A stretch of 64,000 bases of DNA from the sequence record PQ871103.1; one strand, given 5' to 3'. A program made the translations under genes and the position numbers. A model generated the notes under the pieces. The model searched no databases and was not told the origin of the DNA. It saw only the letters and a list, made by a program, of their open reading frames with translations. This DNA comes from Escherichia phage vB_Eco_ZCEC15. Below are positions 16,423 through 56,702 of this stretch, in pieces. How positions within the stretch are numbered: position 1 is the first letter of the stretch; the number at the start of each line of letters is the position of its first letter.

Positions 16423-17559
16423 TTATGGATAGGTATAGATGATACCAGTTTCTAAAGCAGTTTTATGAATGATGTATCCATTACGTGATTCTTGAACATC
16501 AACTTCTGGATAGTCTTTCATCATCTTTTGAAGAGTGTAACGATGCAGATAGTATTTACTGTCTGGATCTTCAGTTTTCCAATCTTTACCTTCTTCGGTC
16601 ATTTTTTGGATTTCATCCATAACCCACCAACCGCACCAGATATAAGCTGAAGTACGATGTGGAAGAGGATGAACATAAGGCAATTCACCTTCTGGTTCCG
16701 GAGCAACTTTATCAGTTACCTGAACTTGGCCTGTTGCTTTAACTGTTTTACTATCATAGTCGGTTGCTGTAACGACAGCAGTAACTTCAATAGTTTGACT
16801 TCCAATAGATGAGGTGTCAACGGTGTATACGTTAGTTGACCCTTCTACAAGAGAAGAATCTTTCTTCCATGAATAAGTAATTTGTGCTGCTTCAGGTGCT
16901 CCAGTAACATTAGCCGTAAATGTAGCCGAAGCATCTTGCTGAACGTTAATAGAAGGAGGAGTCAATGTAACCTGTGGATTCATTGTCTTCTTATTAACTG
17001 TCAATGATACTTCATTAGAAGTAACTTCCTTTTCATTGTAATTTTCAGCCGTTACTTGGGCTACACACTTAACTGTTTTAGCTCCAACTGTGGTAGGAGT
17101 ATAGTTAAATGTAGCAGAAGTCGCTTCACCAATTTGAGAATCATCTACATACCACTGATACGTAGCGTTTGCACCTGATGGCTGTGAAGCTAAGGCAGCG
17201 GTAAATTCAATTGGAGTTCCAATCACTCCAGCATCAGGGCTACCAGGAGTTACAGCTAAAGTAGTTGTTTGTGTCTTATTTTGAACTGTGATAGTTGTCG
17301 TAGTTTCTGCTGTTTCAGGTTCAGCTTCAGATTCTGGAACTGTATTTGTTGCAACTACTTTAATAGTCTTTTGACCTGCAGGTCCTTTTAGTACATAGCT
17401 AAAAGTTGCTTCAGCTCCATCCTGTGGAACATTATCTACACTCCAAGCATAGGTAATAGTTCCACCTTCAGTTTGACCACTGGGTGTAGCAGTAAACTGC
17501 TTGGTTTCATCAATAACTCCTGTTGGGGTTTTAGGAGTTATATCAACTGTAAAAGTCAT
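16423..17559 (-). CDS. hoc: Hoc, highly immunogenic outer capsid protein (Ig-like repeats)
   Basis: 378 aa; repeated Thr/Val-rich Ig-like modules; position between rnlB block and inh. Confidence 0.85.
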   Translation of the reverse strand: MTFTVDITPKTPTGVIDETKQFTATPSGQTEGGTITYAWSVDNVPQDGAEATFSYVLKGPAGQKTIKVVATNTVPESEAEPETAETTTTITVQNKTQTTTLAVTPGSPDAGVIGTPIEFTAALASQPSGANATYQWYVDDSQIGEATSATFNYTPTTVGAKTVKCVAQVTAENYNEKEVTSNEVSLTVNKKTMNPQVTLTPPSINVQQDASATFTANVTGAPEAAQITYSWKKDSSLVEGSTNVYTVDTSSIGSQTIEVTAVVTATDYDSKTVKATGQVQVTDKVAPEPEGELPYVHPLPHRTSAYIWCGWWVMDEIQKMTEEGKDWKTEDPDSKYYLHRYTLQKMMKDYPEVDVQESRNGYIIHKTALETGIIYTYP

Positions 17560-29333: not shown

Positions 29334-31390
29334 TACATCTTGAACTTTTTAGACATTTCGTTGATGTTAACCAAAGAAGCCAAGATTTGAGAAACTTCGT
29401 TTTCCTCTTCTTTTGATTCTTCTACAAGGAATTGATTAAACCCAGCCATTGGACGAACTTCGCCAGTTTCCATTAGATGATCGCCATCATATACCGATTC
29501 TTCTAATTGTTCAGAAGGAGGAACGATTGTGCCTTCGATTAGATACTTGTTATAAGCAGTTTCTTTCATCATGTACGTGCTTACTTTATTAATCTTCAAC
29601 AAAATTCCACGCGGTAGAATAACTTCAGCTTCTGATGGAAATCCTGATAAATGACCTGGAACGATAACTTTGATTCGCTCAGCCCCTTTAATTACCATAC
29701 CTACGCTAGCTTCAGCATCTTCATTAGCATATGCAGAATGACTACCCATATGCATTAAATCTTCAGCATCAACAGAACCTTCTCCTTCACCAGAAAATAC
29801 TGCGCCGGAATCATCTAGAGCCATATAGTTTTTACCATGCTCACCGAAGATATTTGGTTTAAGCGACGTGGATACGAAGTTCTTGAAATAGAACATTTTA
29901 TTTTCAATATTATGACGTAAAGTTTTAAAAGTAACTTCTTGCCCACGATAAAGCGTAGTTCCTGGAGGAAGAACTGATCCTTTGGCGAATGCAGAATCCA
30001 GCGTCTCGATGTGTTTAATAGCTCGTTCAATGTATTCTTCACGGGTAGAATCTGGTTTACCCAAGAGGAACGAGTTCATTTCAACATATGAATCTGCACA
30101 ATAATCTTCAATTACATCAGACTCAGCCTGAGTCAGTCCTTTTGGAGTTACTTCGGTGCTTGCATATTCATACGCCTGAGCAGCAGATGCATTAATCAAT
30201 TTATAAATGCCATTCATGACAAATCGAATAATAGCTACCTTTTCGTCTGGTGTGGCTTTAGAACCTTTAACTAAATCATTGATAATTTTCTTAATAACAT
30301 CAAAGCTATTAGAAATATTAATGTCAGCGAGATCGCTCAAAATTTTATCGGTTTTATAATCAAAAAATTCTTTATTCTTTAAATATTCTTGAGAACCTTG
30401 ATGTGTTATATCGCTCTGCAGTCTGATAGACGGATCACGTAAACGTGCATGGGCCAATGCAATATCATTTCGGAAGCTTTCTAGTTCATAATCGTTAGAT
30501 TTAAAACGAGAAGCACTTCTCATACCACCGATAGCTCCTTTGCTGAAGTTTGAACCAATCTGAATAACGCCAGAGTTCATTGATCCTTCTGCTTTATATA
30601 CCGGAACTTTAGATTCAAACTCTTGATATTTCTTGGCAGCGAAGCTATCACCCTGTAGCGAAGCATCGACAGTAGAATATTGAGCTTGCGCTGCTAATCG
30701 ACGACTAATTTTAGTTTTCTGAATAACAGCTTGATCCGTGCGCTTATCATTTTCTAAAGCAACAGAAGCAGCAACAGCAACAGCTTTAGGAACAGCATTA
30801 CCTGTTTTAACATCTACATAAACATCACCAACCTTTGATTCAACTTTTGTGAATAACTCAGTTGAAATAGGAGGTACACCTGGAATGTCTTCTAAATTGG
30901 CATTTTTACGGTAAACCATAATATATGCATACTTTTTATCGTAATCCCAGATTTCCTTTAAAAGAACATATCGACCTGCTCCTTTAGTACGTACTAAACG
31001 GTCAGCAATAACTTGCATCTGACGAGCAGCGCCATTTGTTTTACTTTTTAGTACGCGGAATAGGCATGCGTCAATTTTATACTGTTTCATTGTTTGAAGA
31101 GCAGTATCAAAAACCGCATTAATGACACCAATTGGATTTCCACCCAAGTTTTTAAGTTTAACTAATGATAGTTTCTCATTAACACCTATCATTACGATAT
31201 GCATCATTTTATCGCCTGGCTTAACGTTTTTATTTGTATCACCGCCAGAGGTGTATGTACAAAATCTAAATCCAGGAAGCACGCTTTCTTCACCGGCTTG
31301 AATAGCAAAAATTTGAGGTATTTTATGCTTAGGATTTAAGTTAACAACCGGCGCCGAAGCGCCGTCAAATAATTCTGTAATAAGTTCCAT
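29333..31390 (-). CDS. Alt-like ADP-ribosyltransferase paralogue
   Basis: 685 aa; R-S-E ART motif (YRGQ, FVSTS, EAEVILPRG); N-terminus near-identical to upstream paralogue. Confidence 0.8.
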   Translation of the reverse strand: MELITELFDGASAPVVNLNPKHKIPQIFAIQAGEESVLPGFRFCTYTSGGDTNKNVKPGDKMMHIVMIGVNEKLSLVKLKNLGGNPIGVINAVFDTALQTMKQYKIDACLFRVLKSKTNGAARQMQVIADRLVRTKGAGRYVLLKEIWDYDKKYAYIMVYRKNANLEDIPGVPPISTELFTKVESKVGDVYVDVKTGNAVPKAVAVAASVALENDKRTDQAVIQKTKISRRLAAQAQYSTVDASLQGDSFAAKKYQEFESKVPVYKAEGSMNSGVIQIGSNFSKGAIGGMRSASRFKSNDYELESFRNDIALAHARLRDPSIRLQSDITHQGSQEYLKNKEFFDYKTDKILSDLADINISNSFDVIKKIINDLVKGSKATPDEKVAIIRFVMNGIYKLINASAAQAYEYASTEVTPKGLTQAESDVIEDYCADSYVEMNSFLLGKPDSTREEYIERAIKHIETLDSAFAKGSVLPPGTTLYRGQEVTFKTLRHNIENKMFYFKNFVSTSLKPNIFGEHGKNYMALDDSGAVFSGEGEGSVDAEDLMHMGSHSAYANEDAEASVGMVIKGAERIKVIVPGHLSGFPSEAEVILPRGILLKINKVSTYMMKETAYNKYLIEGTIVPPSEQLEESVYDGDHLMETGEVRPMAGFNQFLVEESKEEENEVSQILASLVNINEMSKKFKM

Positions 31391-43475: not shown

Positions 43476-43700
43476 TTATTTCTCAACCAATGATTGAATA
43501 TAATCATGCAGGTCTTTAGATGCTTTACCCCACTTATTTTGGTATTCATTTTTAAGATTAGCACGTGATTGAGCTAATAAAACATCATTAGTTGGAGGTA
43601 AAGATTCTAATCGCTGAATCTGGCGTCCGTAAATCATTGCAGCCATCTCGGATTCATAAATCAATCCTTTGAGATGTTCAAATTGATGCCATGAAATCAT
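43476..43700 (-). CDS. Hypothetical protein
   Basis: 74-aa ORF. Confidence 0.5.
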   Translation of the reverse strand: MISWHQFEHLKGLIYESEMAAMIYGRQIQRLESLPPTNDVLLAQSRANLKNEYQNKWGKASKDLHDYIQSLVEK

Positions 43701-43996
43701 TTACATTTATCCTCTTTTAACTCTTGACGATAATAACATATCATAGTTTTCTGATCATGTACATATCGTTTTACATCATTAAGCCAAATACGAAATTCCT
43801 GGGAATCTTCGAATGGCATACCGACCCAAGCTTTACCATCAATAACTTTAACTTGCCAGGATAGTTTAGCTTCATCATATGACTTTATTTGTACTGGCCA
43901 ATTAGGATGAACTGTTTCTTTCTTTACTTCTAGAGGCTTTGTCGAACAACCAACTAGAAGACCAATAGATAATATTACTGCTGATAGTTTAATCAT
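43697..43996 (-). CDS. Putative lipoprotein
   Basis: 99 aa; N-terminal signal MIKLSAVILSIGLLVGC with lipobox LVGC. Confidence 0.6.
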   Translation of the reverse strand: MIKLSAVILSIGLLVGCSTKPLEVKKETVHPNWPVQIKSYDEAKLSWQVKVIDGKAWVGMPFEDSQEFRIWLNDVKRYVHDQKTMICYYRQELKEDKCK

Positions 43997-52492: not shown

Positions 52493-53692
<1,200 letters not shown>

Positions 53693-54289: not shown

Positions 54290-54398
54290 TTTATTCTCCT
54301 TAGCAAGCTTTAATCAAAAGGTATAAGCAAACTAACATAACTGCTGCCATAATATAAGGTGCGAACATTTTCTTTTCTCCATTAGTTTTGATAGGGTA

Positions 54399-54428
54399 AT
54401 AGTATCACACTACTACCCTTCTGTAAAC
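54399..54428 (-). promoter_or_regulatory. Putative early promoter (GTTTAC-N18-TACTAT) with -10 inside inverted repeat
   Basis: - strand GTTTACagaagggtagtagtgtgaTACTAT. Confidence 0.4.
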
Positions 54429-54823
54429 TACTTTTTGAAAGTTTTTCGCAAAAGTTCAATGATTTCGTCTACATTGTTTTCATCAACAATGCAGTGAATT
54501 TTTGTTACGCCAGAAACTGGGGTCTTATTAATGAAATCTATGGGTTGAAATGATTCTGGAGATACTTCAACAAAGTATTTGAATTCGTCTTCATATATTT
54601 CAAAAAATGAACCCGGTTTGCCGGCAGCATAAAATTTACTGCCGTCTTGCATAGTAACTCCTGTTACGAATGATACGTTGTCATCATCAACAACCATATC
54701 ATTGACAGTAAAACTAGGACCATGAATCTCAATCAAAGATACCATATCAGCATTTTGTGGGCATTCATCAGCAAAAGTAGCTTTGCATATAGGATTAATG
54801 ATATAAGTTTTTCCGATTTTCAT
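54428..54823 (-). CDS. Hypothetical protein
   Basis: 131-aa ORF with AGAGAAAATAA RBS region. Confidence 0.5.
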   Translation of the reverse strand: MKIGKTYIINPICKATFADECPQNADMVSLIEIHGPSFTVNDMVVDDDNVSFVTGVTMQDGSKFYAAGKPGSFFEIYEDEFKYFVEVSPESFQPIDFINKTPVSGVTKIHCIVDENNVDEIIELLRKTFKK

Positions 54824-54844
54824 TTATTTTCTCTCATTTTAATA

Positions 54845-54860
54845 GGGGCTTGATAGCCCC
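54845..54860 (-). terminator. Hairpin GGGGCTATCAAGCCCC
   Basis: GC stem-loop between gene 32 downstream region and next ORF. Confidence 0.55.
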
Positions 54861-54867
54861 TTGATAA

Positions 54868-55095
54868 TTACTGCTCAATAAATCCTGTGTAAAATTCTAC
54901 ATCTTCATCATCCATACCGTCACAGTATTCATTAACCATAAACTGTTTAAGACGATTTAAAGGACCTTCAATAACAACTGAAACATTGCAATTAGGATCA
55001 TTTAGTGCGCTTATGATATTAAGTTCAGGATAACGATTACGAATATTTTGAAGAAATTATTCGTAATCAATAACATCAATATCAACTTTAGCCAT
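54868..55095 (-). pseudogene. Reading frame interrupted by in-frame TAA: 12-codon ORF (MAKVDIDVIDYE) then 62 further open codons; possible disrupted gene or leader peptide plus hairpin
   Basis: AAAGAGGAAAACAAT-ATG start; TAA at 55057..55059 lies inside an 11-bp perfect inverted repeat. Confidence 0.35.
55035..55068. repeat. Perfect 11-bp inverted repeat GATTACGAATA / TATTCGTAATC with 12-nt loop
   Basis: Read directly from sequence. Confidence 0.8.
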
Positions 55096-55115
55096 ATTGT
55101 TTTCCTCTTTAATCA

Positions 55116-55949
55116 TCAGCAGTATTGCCGATAGTTGTATAGTACCATAGTTCTTGTGGCAAAATCATCAGCAACTTTATCAGCTTTCTTAGCGGCAGTC
55201 GCTGCGGCACCACCCATAGCAGCAGTTCCCATAACTTGACTGAACTTAGTGCTCAGTTCTTCAAACGATTTGAATTTATCTTTAGAAGTCATTTCAGAAA
55301 GGTCAACCATTTGTTCAAACAGTTCTTTCTGGAAAGATTCATCATCAATGTTTGGAATCGCAGATTGATTCAGGAATTTAGATTCGTCGTAGTTACTAAA
55401 ACCAGAAACTTGTTTAACTTTCAGTACAAAGTTAGCACCTTCCCACGGACAAGTTACATCAACCGGAGTTTCACCCATTTCAACATCAACTGCAATCATT
55501 GCATTGATTTTATCCCAGATTTTCTTGCCGAAACGGTATTTAAATACTTTACCTTCATTTTCTGGAGCAGCTGGGTCTTTTACTACAAGAATGTTAGCCC
55601 AGTAAGAAGTTTTACGTTTAACAAGACCGTACTCTTTATTGTCAGTGTTGTACAAATCATTTTTACTGATGTACTGACATACTGGGCAAGAATCGTAATC
55701 ACCGTGGGTAGATGAACAGTTTTCAATATACCATTTACCATTTTTCTTGAAACCGTGATTTACAAGAATTGCGAATGGTGCTTGTTCATCATTTTTAGAC
55801 GGAAGAAAACGAATTACTGCTTGACCGTTACCCGCATTATCGAGTTTCAGTTTCCACTCGCCTTTATCTTCAGAAGAAAAACCACCTTTATTTCCAGCCA
55901 GTTTAGCCATTTGTGCAGCGAGTTCAGCAGTGGATTTACGTTTAAACAT
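55116..55949 (-). CDS. 32: Single-stranded DNA-binding protein gp32 (ORF ends without acidic C-terminal domain)
   Basis: 277 aa; Zn site H...C...CPVC; ends [24 protein letters not shown]. Confidence 0.85.
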
Positions 55950-56030
55950 TTTTATTTCCTTTTTAATTTAATTAACAGTTGGTGCTATGACGATGTATGA
56001 CCTCATAGCTGGTCAGTGAGATAATTATAA
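55950..56030 (-). promoter_or_regulatory. Gene 32 translational operator: AU-rich unstructured leader and upstream pseudoknot
   Basis: - strand ...TGACCAGCTATGAGGTCATACATCGTCATAGCACC...TTAATTAAATTAAAAAGGAAATAAAAATG. Confidence 0.7.
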
Positions 56031-56032
56031 TC

Positions 56033-56040
56033 TATTTATA
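56033..56040 (-). promoter_or_regulatory. Late promoter box TATAAATA (- strand) for gene 32
   Basis: Exact motif about 85 nt upstream of gp32 ATG. Confidence 0.5.
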
Positions 56041-56048
56041 ATAAGCAA

Positions 56049-56702
56049 TTAATACTTGCAAGATTTCACAGTTTCAATAAAAACACTTTTAGCTTTCTGT
56101 GAATCAATATTTAAAATTTTTCTATAAGCCTTTAACTTTATAGAATAATTATTCCAGACTAAATTATCAGTCTGTTCATCATGTTTATCGATTATATTTA
56201 AAAACGAATCAAGCAAGATAAACGTTTCAAACGAAATTATATTCGATTGAAGTAGTTTAAAAATATAACTTGATTGGACTTTTGGATTATACTCAAAGAT
56301 TTCTTTAAAAGCAGAAACTTCAACTTTTTTACTAAAATAATAAATGTTGCGAATATCTTCTTCAAACTTAAATTTAATTTGCTTTAAGCGTCCGATATAT
56401 TCACGATAAAACACAAGTGCATCAGCGTCAGAGATGTCACCAATCCAAGCATCTTGGTTAGCAACAAGATTGCTTATAAAGATTAAAGCAAGTTCCTTTA
56501 ATTTATATTTTTCTGATAACTTCTGGAAAAAATACTTATCCCTTCGCTTTTGATAAGCGGCATCAGACACCCGCATGCACCAATTATACTTAATTACATC
56601 ATACTTTCCATTCATATGTTGTTTTATCATTAAGTATAATTTATAAACTGATTTACCATCAATGTATCTTTCACCACCAGCAGGCATGCGGAGTTTAATC
56701 AT
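56049..56702 (-). CDS. 59: gp59 helicase loader
   Basis: 217 aa as T4 gp59; position upstream of 32. Confidence 0.9.
   Translation of the reverse strand: MIKLRMPAGGERYIDGKSVYKLYLMIKQHMNGKYDVIKYNWCMRVSDAAYQKRRDKYFFQKLSEKYKLKELALIFISNLVANQDAWIGDISDADALVFYREYIGRLKQIKFKFEEDIRNIYYFSKKVEVSAFKEIFEYNPKVQSSYIFKLLQSNIISFETFILLDSFLNIIDKHDEQTDNLVWNNYSIKLKAYRKILNIDSQKAKSVFIETVKSCKY

Follow-up and report, generated by a model that had tools for sequence, protein, structure and literature searches.

The C-domain of phage T4 gp32, residues 254-301, makes the contacts of gp32 with proteins of replication, repair and recombination and is the source of a kinetic block on duplex melting (PMC5892887). Partners assigned to this domain include gp61, gp59 and RNase H (PMC3012046) as well as UvsX and UvsY (PMC3016280). 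Dda binds the amphipathic helix formed by residues 248-270 by way of A255, V258, L262 and F265, and most of the acidic charge of gp32 is held by residues 273-301 (PMC11551737). The *I truncate binds ssDNA approximately 45-fold and dsDNA approximately 80-fold more tightly than full-length gp32 (PMC5892887). A smaller lesion of the domain is carried by deltaPR201, a T4 strain that remains viable, with autoregulation unaffected and the specificity of protein-protein contacts changed (PMC535899, PMC5892887).

Here we describe a gene 32 allele from a 64,000-nucleotide stretch of the genome of Escherichia phage vB_Eco_ZCEC15 (PQ871103.1), referred to below as the window, whose product is truncated within the same domain. 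Like *I, also designated G32P*I or gp32-A (T4 residues 1-253/254), the window protein retains the B domain and Zn/OB core, has no acidic stretch and would be without the partner-binding function. In contrast to *I, which is a proteolytic or recombinant laboratory product, the window truncation is encoded in the genome, and the protein ends at T4 residue 261 rather than at about residue 253 and continues into 15 unrelated residues with a net charge of +2. The lesions of deltaPR201 (residues 292-296 lost) and of the 1-295 truncate lie in the same domain as that of the window but remove only 5-6 residues, whereas the window allele is missing 40, including L262 and F265.

A second class of described events is also relevant to this locus, as template switching between short inverted repeats yields arm homogenisation and spacer inversion (PMC8604942, PMC7202029). 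The change found in frd.3, the gene directly downstream of gene 32, would be the same in kind as these mutations and is special only for the nonsense codon that it creates.

The window is a segment of a Tequatrovirus (T4-like) genome, and its gene 32 region lies on the minus strand with the gene order rnh - dsbA - 33 - 59 - 32 - frd.3 - frd.2 - ... - frd. In T4, segG sits between genes 59 and 32 (PMC2988022, PMC535899), and Hafnia phage IsaacDaniel has segG at the same place; in contrast, the 99-nt gap between the two genes in the window (55950..56048) is without this homing-endonuclease gene. The region was aligned with the close Tequatrovirus relatives EPIMAM01, T4_ev151 and CAM-21. Two structural mutations, both recent and derived, have very probably struck neighbouring genes here, a blunt deletion and a spacer inversion, in a genome that is otherwise intact. 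The features of the region are, in the direction of the genes:

56049..56702, minus strand: gene 59 (helicase loader), intact, upstream of gene 32; product 100% identical to gp59 of T4_ev151 and phiC600P9
55164..55949, minus strand: gene 32 codons 1-262, normal gp32; PF08804 gp32, E 1.7e-66, profile positions 1-208 of 208
55116..55163, minus strand: novel 15-codon tail and TGA, formed by the old frd.3 promoter -10 and 5' leader, out of frame
55161..55162, minus strand: deletion junction, GATGATTT joined to TGCCAC; the EPIMAM01 flanks are 100% identical and 200 bp further apart
55139..55147, minus strand: surviving TG-extended -10 (TGgTACTAT) of the frd.3 promoter, its -35 deleted
55093..55107, minus strand: frd.3 Shine-Dalgarno GAGG (55107..55104) and ATG (55095..55093), 5-20 nt past the gene 32 stops
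54868..55095, minus strand: frd.3, 75 codons, with an ochre codon at codon 13 (TAA 55059..55057); PF05798 Phage_FRD3
54428..54823, minus strand: frd.2-family gene, intact, downstream; PF03197 FRD2, E 3e-31

The truncated gene 32 product

Gene 32 extends on the minus strand from 55949 to 55116, with its ATG at 55949 and a TGA at 55118..55116, and encodes 277 aa. A second TGA follows at 55115..55113, so that a tandem TGATGA lies shortly ahead of the frd.3 ribosome-binding site. The first 262 codons take in the B domain and the Zn/OB-fold core and reach 8-9 residues into the C-domain; their product is 100% identical to the gp32 of GEP001 and 98.9% identical to that of T4_ev151, with no private substitutions. 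The N-terminal basic cooperativity (B) domain, residues 1-21 with the KRKST motif, is present and the same as in relatives, and the OB-fold/Zn core is likewise present, its His/Cys Zn ligands being visible in the translation.

Beyond residue 262 the protein departs from its relatives. The 15-residue tail contains no acidic and two basic residues, whereas the 40-aa tail found in relatives has 12 acidic ones. Three-frame translation and tblastn agree that an acidic C-terminal (A) domain is encoded in no frame at this point and nowhere else in the 64-kb window. The initial annotation had reported a 277-aa gp32-like ORF, matching gp32 through the Zn-binding core and closed by a 15-residue non-acidic tail, with no alternative frame supplying an acidic one, and this description is borne out in full on the minus strand. 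The same annotation had considered that relatives might share the short C-terminus. They do not, as the gp32 of relatives is 301-302 aa long, and gp32 homologues in a large protein database measure 290-308 aa with very few exceptions. Among the homologues listed, the sole other aberrant gp32 C-terminus belongs to a 262-aa protein ending ...GGAAAAADSGMPHGGRRL, in which the acidic tail is missing; it is encoded on a 3143-bp ENA metagenome contig (P0023) that may be chimeric.

Because the window protein can be matched to T4 gp32 only as far as residue 261, it has neither L262 nor F265 and none of the acidic stretch. The amphipathic helix that binds partners (T4 residues 248-270) is cut in half by the deletion, and the encoded protein consists of the B-domain, the core and a neutral to basic tail of 15 aa.

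The 200-bp deletion and the gp32::Frd.3 fusion lineage

Alignment and exact mapping against EPIMAM01 define a clean, blunt deletion of 200 bp with 0 nt microhomology, its junction lying between 55162 and 55161. EPIMAM01 reads ...GCTGATGATTT, then the segment missing from the window, GGATGCATTC ... GGTTTACA, and then TGCCACAAGAAC..., and both halves of a 71-nt junction probe match this phage at 100%, as two separate pieces. T4_ev151, the best public match to the region (98.2% identity), also aligns in two pieces, with 2000 bp set against a query of 1801 bp. The lost 200 bp contained the final 40 codons and the stop of gene 32, the rho-independent terminator of that gene (GGGGACCCTAGAGGTCCCC followed by T6), and the -35 box TTTACA of the T4 early-type frd.3 promoter. 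In EPIMAM01, both the promoter (TTTACA-17-TACTAT, with an upstream TG) and the gene 32 terminator were detected intact. In the window, the frd.3 promoter was not reported at its place, and a terminator-like site, defined as a GC-rich stem with a T-run, was found nowhere in 54300..56150.

Judged by these alignments, the tail of gene 32 is the frd.3 leader that was already there, now translated in a different frame as the product of a deletion with no replacement. The initial annotation had suggested a rearrangement that replaced the 3' end of gene 32; the change to the gene end is real and consists of the 200-bp deletion, but nothing was put in its place. When the window is compared with T4_ev151, 11 nt at the junction have the appearance of a filler. 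These were rejected as a templated insert, being the EPIMAM01 lineage's own intergenic sequence. SegG cleavage followed by repair was rejected as a cause, as segG is absent here and no tie was found between the SegG cleavage site and the breakpoints. A GC-rich stem-loop, GGGGCT-ATCA-AGCCCC, lies at 54845..54860 directly 3' of the frd.3 stop and is kept in relatives; it has no T-run and received no terminator call, and following the deletion it is the first strong structure 3' of gene 32.

The same gene junction is altered in a lineage in which gene 32 and frd.3 are fused. phiC600P9 (MZ681930, L006:3001-4179) encodes a 392-aa protein with both gp32 and FRD3 Pfam domains, and the fusion junction is found again in GEP001 (PV173775, L008:352-1530; CDS of 1179 nt), in vB_Eco-B1.1 and in another record of phiC600P9; the gp32::Frd.3 fusion is also listed under ON871820 and MT630408. 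Relative to JE01-type phages, the fusion represents a blunt, in-frame deletion of 106 bp with 0 nt microhomology, in which gene 32 loses its last 7 codons and stop, the terminator and frd.3 -35 box disappear as well, and Frd.3 stays intact. The fusion and window alleles are alike in their blunt loss of the gene 32 stop, terminator and frd.3 -35 box, but the fusion allele differs in size (106 versus 200 bp), in the loss of only 7 residues, in remaining in frame and in its occurrence in several isolates. The 106-bp deletion is independent of the 200-bp deletion of the window; the right breakpoints of the two (55161..55162 in the window, about L006:3885 in the fusion) are 3 nt apart, directly after the -35 hexamer TTTACA. 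Its presence in three differently named isolates suggests that the fusion genotype is viable and in circulation, and this in turn indicates that phages tolerate changes to the end of gp32 and the removal of the terminator and promoter. In IsaacDaniel (MW749000, L009:1087-1443), the 118-aa frd.3 entry bears the label 'putative ssDNA binding protein'; it was rejected as a gp32 fusion, the entry reflecting an over-extended ORF call upstream of frd.3.

The 3' end of gene 32 may be a deletion-prone or a selected spot, and a selective explanation for the changes at the gene 32/frd.3 junction is conceivable. Selection might have removed the gene 32 tail together with the terminator and promoter region, either in escape from a host defence (for example one that senses ssDNA covered by phage SSB, or a tail-dependent partner such as Dda) or in adaptation to a laboratory host, the frd.3 knockout then being secondary, an adjustment to read-through or coupled over-expression. 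Such an account gains from the persistence, in three differently named isolates, of an independent 106-bp deletion ending 3 nt from the window's right breakpoint, and from reports that phage SSBs trigger or co-trigger defence systems (DARNA preprint, doi 10.64898/2026.02.22.705581) and that T4 escapes DRT1 through destruction of dda (PMC13275509). However, deletion of the gp32 tail is not known to provide escape from any defence system, and a T7 SSB with its C-terminal Phe232 deleted, which blocks the polymerase contact, inhibits DARNA cells like the wild type (DARNA preprint). The fusion lineage itself also fits poorly, as it keeps all of gp32 but 7 residues and makes Frd.3 at the level of gp32, against the toxicity of Frd.3, and the window allele has been seen once only. 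Survival of that lineage with Frd.3 at gp32 levels weakens the proposal that frd.3 was knocked out as a harmful read-through product. As a joint account of the gene 32 and frd.3 changes, we consider selection quite improbable.

The interrupted frd.3 gene and its palindrome

The reading frame that the GAGG and ATG open, eighteen bases past the end of gene 32, comprises 12 codons, the TAA at 55059..55057 and then 62 open codons up to a TAA at 54870..54868. Every element of this arrangement as first annotated, namely a ribosome-binding site and ATG, 12 codons, a TAA within a perfect 11-bp repeat at 55035..55068 and 62 further codons, is present, and one of the interpretations then put forward, a gene interrupted by a nonsense codon, agrees with our results: the downstream ORF is frd.3, and its match to PF05798 spans the stop. 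After repair of the stop, the ORF covers positions 1-75 of the 75 in the PF05798 profile (E 3e-31); the part following the stop covers positions 17-75 (E 1e-19), and tblastn with the T4_ev151 frd.3 ORF runs across the stop. In place of an uninterrupted FRD3 reading frame, the window thus has a TAA where relatives have Tyr13 (TAT). On the strength of these matches, the 12-codon ORF and the 62 open codons that follow are one gene, frd.3, predicted to be inactivated by the nonsense codon; we regard it as dead because the next in-frame ATG after the stop at codon 13 comes only at codon 53.

The stop codon lies in a palindrome with two parts:

55035..55068: 34-bp palindrome with perfect 11-bp arms, GATTACGAATA/TATTCGTAATC; the arms are also perfect in EPIMAM01
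55046..55057: 12-nt spacer, inverted relative to all relatives, TTTTGAAGAAAT to ATTTCTTCAAAA; this creates the change from TAT to TAA

EPIMAM01 reads GATTACGAATA-TTTTGAAGAAAT-TATTCGTAATC and the window GATTACGAATA-ATTTCTTCAAAA-TATTCGTAATC, with the same arms and the same flanks, and the window 34-mer is the reverse complement of the EPIMAM01 34-mer. The 6 base differences between them all fall in the spacer, and because they are exactly those given by its reverse complement, chance is ruled out. The TAA straddles the border of arm and spacer, the first base of the spacer turning TAT into TAA. In most relatives the arms are imperfect (GATTTT...GTAATC), the corresponding arm of the window reading GATTAC at 55063..55068, and a repaired 69-mer finds a full match in EPIMAM01 only, among 510 records. 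The double change from TT to AC that perfects the arms corresponds to Phe11 to Tyr in Frd.3 and looks like an earlier templated arm homogenisation in the lineage. Folded as an ssDNA hairpin, the perfect arms give -8.8 kcal/mol in either loop orientation, compared with -3.0 and -2.5 kcal/mol for the common imperfect forms. A change that is the exact reverse complement of a spacer, with arms and flanks intact, is what defines a spacer inversion, and the flipped spacer would accordingly bear the signature of hairpin template switching, or of arm-arm recombination, which gives the same products.

The inverted repeat by itself is uncommon yet within chance: perfect inverted repeats of at least 11 bp with loops of 3-20 nt number 2 in the 64 kb, and approximately 0.6 are expected from first-order Markov simulations. 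The other such repeat, GATTATGCAAT-TTTTAACGC-ATTGCATAATC at 53626..53656, is located inside an 81-aa ORF on the minus strand (53447..53692) and has the same orientation in phiC600P9 and CAM-21; EPIMAM01 has one arm mismatch in it.

A further interpretation offered in the initial annotation was a regulatory hairpin with a leader peptide. Here, the hairpin and the 12-codon ORF would serve as an attenuator or terminator, or the TAA would be read through or recoded to yield full-length Frd.3. The strong ribosome-binding site, the short ORF ending in a stable hairpin (RNA -12.2 kcal/mol, z -3.1) and the frame that is still open past the TAA are the features that invite such a reading. However, the short ORF corresponds to frd.3 codons 1-12 and its stop is unique to the window, being found in 0 of 696 related records, which argues against a conserved leader-peptide device; EPIMAM01, moreover, has the same hairpin with an uninterrupted ORF. 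The stem is AT-rich and without a T-run, no terminator-like site is present, and a comparison with Rfam returned no family match for the hairpin, with snoRNA hits at chance level only. Read-through is further disfavored by the base following the stop, as a UAA with U as the next base makes a strong stop signal in E. coli. A regulatory device of this type is therefore exceedingly unlikely.

Origin of the two lesions and their expected consequences

Sequence databases were searched for each lesion. The junction in one piece occurs in none of the 513 records matching the junction probe, and neither the stop nor the flipped loop occurs in any of the 696 records matching the frd.3 probe, among which the best identity to the probe (at most 93.4%) is the value expected for an unflipped loop. 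No record contains the exact 277-aa protein, and metagenome scans gave no hits. Exact-pattern scans of viral_contigs found neither the junction nor the flipped palindrome, but these nulls carry little weight since the unflipped palindrome is absent there too. When all T4_ev151 ORFs were scanned against the window, gene 32 and frd.3 alone were damaged; other flagged lesions (43479..43706 and 31043..31207) were rejected as normal C-terminal variation, and further flags as spurious ORFs. With the rest of the 64 kb intact and the lesions approximately 100 bp apart, the window is not a generally poor assembly, and the identity of gp59 and of gp32 residues 1-262 to those of relatives indicates that the lesions are recent.

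The gp32 C-domain is reportedly required for T4 replisome assembly, according to the title of Hurley et al. 1993 (J Mol Biol 229:398, cited in PMC5892887). With the domain regarded as required, a clonal, healthy phage carrying this allele would be unexpected, which raises the probability of an artefact, of a helper-dependent variant or of a sub-population that is defective. The record might derive from an artefact or an unrepresentative molecule (a library or amplification chimera, a cloning step, a mixed-stock consensus or a defective minority genome), the infectious phage being intact. In keeping with this, an essential domain is lost with no compensating change visible in gp32 1-262 or in gp59, both lesions are unique among 500-700 relatives, and one of them lies in a palindrome, palindromes being known sites of fold-back artefacts in vitro. 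Nevertheless, the ends of the deletion share no repeat, and the symmetry of the palindrome does not extend into its flanks (left, T; right, G), where k-mers of at least 13 including a flank base should fix the loop orientation; a graph assembler should therefore create neither change without supporting reads. In addition, the remaining 64 kb is without frameshifts or broken genes, and fold-back products are usually of low frequency and do not reach the consensus. On balance, an artefact or unrepresentative molecule is unlikely, and both changes are probably present in the sequenced DNA as read, having arisen during recent propagation.

Two observations count against our main reading of two recent structural mutations: the presence of two rare structural lesions approximately 100 bp apart in one record is unusual, and the blunt junction departs from the classic deletion signature of short direct repeats. 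In the mechanism that we propose, an end-joining-type deletion of 200 bp would join gene 32 codon 262 to the frd.3 leader, and a hairpin-mediated template switch of the polymerase, or recombination between the arms, would flip the frd.3 spacer and convert Tyr13 to an ochre codon. Both might result from one complex repair or replication accident or from two linked events; the distance of approximately 100 bp between the lesions suggests either a single messy accident or a second mutation that was favored after the first.

Several consequences can be anticipated. Judging from the biochemistry of *I/gp32-A, the truncated protein is expected to bind ssDNA cooperatively and more tightly, with the kinetic block on melting gone, and the tail-dependent recruitment of Dda, gp59, primase, polymerase, UvsX/UvsY and RNase H would be lost. 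With the terminator removed, gene 32 transcripts are expected to run into frd.3 and frd.2, and the two genes may plausibly be translationally coupled to some extent, as 5 nt now separate the gene 32 stops from the frd.3 Shine-Dalgarno.

Most likely, then, the short gp32 and the split frd.3 are fresh mutations of known kinds in known genes and involve no new biology. They explain the oddity in the annotation, and gene 32 of PQ871103.1 is unsuited as a reference. It is somewhat unlikely that the window shows the true genotype of a plaque-forming T-even phage that replicates without the gp32 acidic tail, with the domain dispensable, or compensated elsewhere in the genome, under its growth conditions and the gene 32/frd.3 junction a recurrent deletion site under selection, perhaps by host defences that sense SSB. 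If it were the true genotype of a viable phage, the allele would provide a natural in vivo test of the need for the gp32 C-domain and, together with the fusion lineage, would mark the 3' end of gene 32 as a tolerated, perhaps selected, site of change. The palindrome offers a clean, datable case of what appear to be successive template-switch products, arm correction followed by spacer inversion, in a phage coding sequence.

Elsewhere in the window, the gene at 16426..17559 aligns with a 568-aa hypothetical protein of T4_ev151 (L004 18589..20295) in overlapping pieces only, which suggests that the number of internal repeats differs between the two phages.
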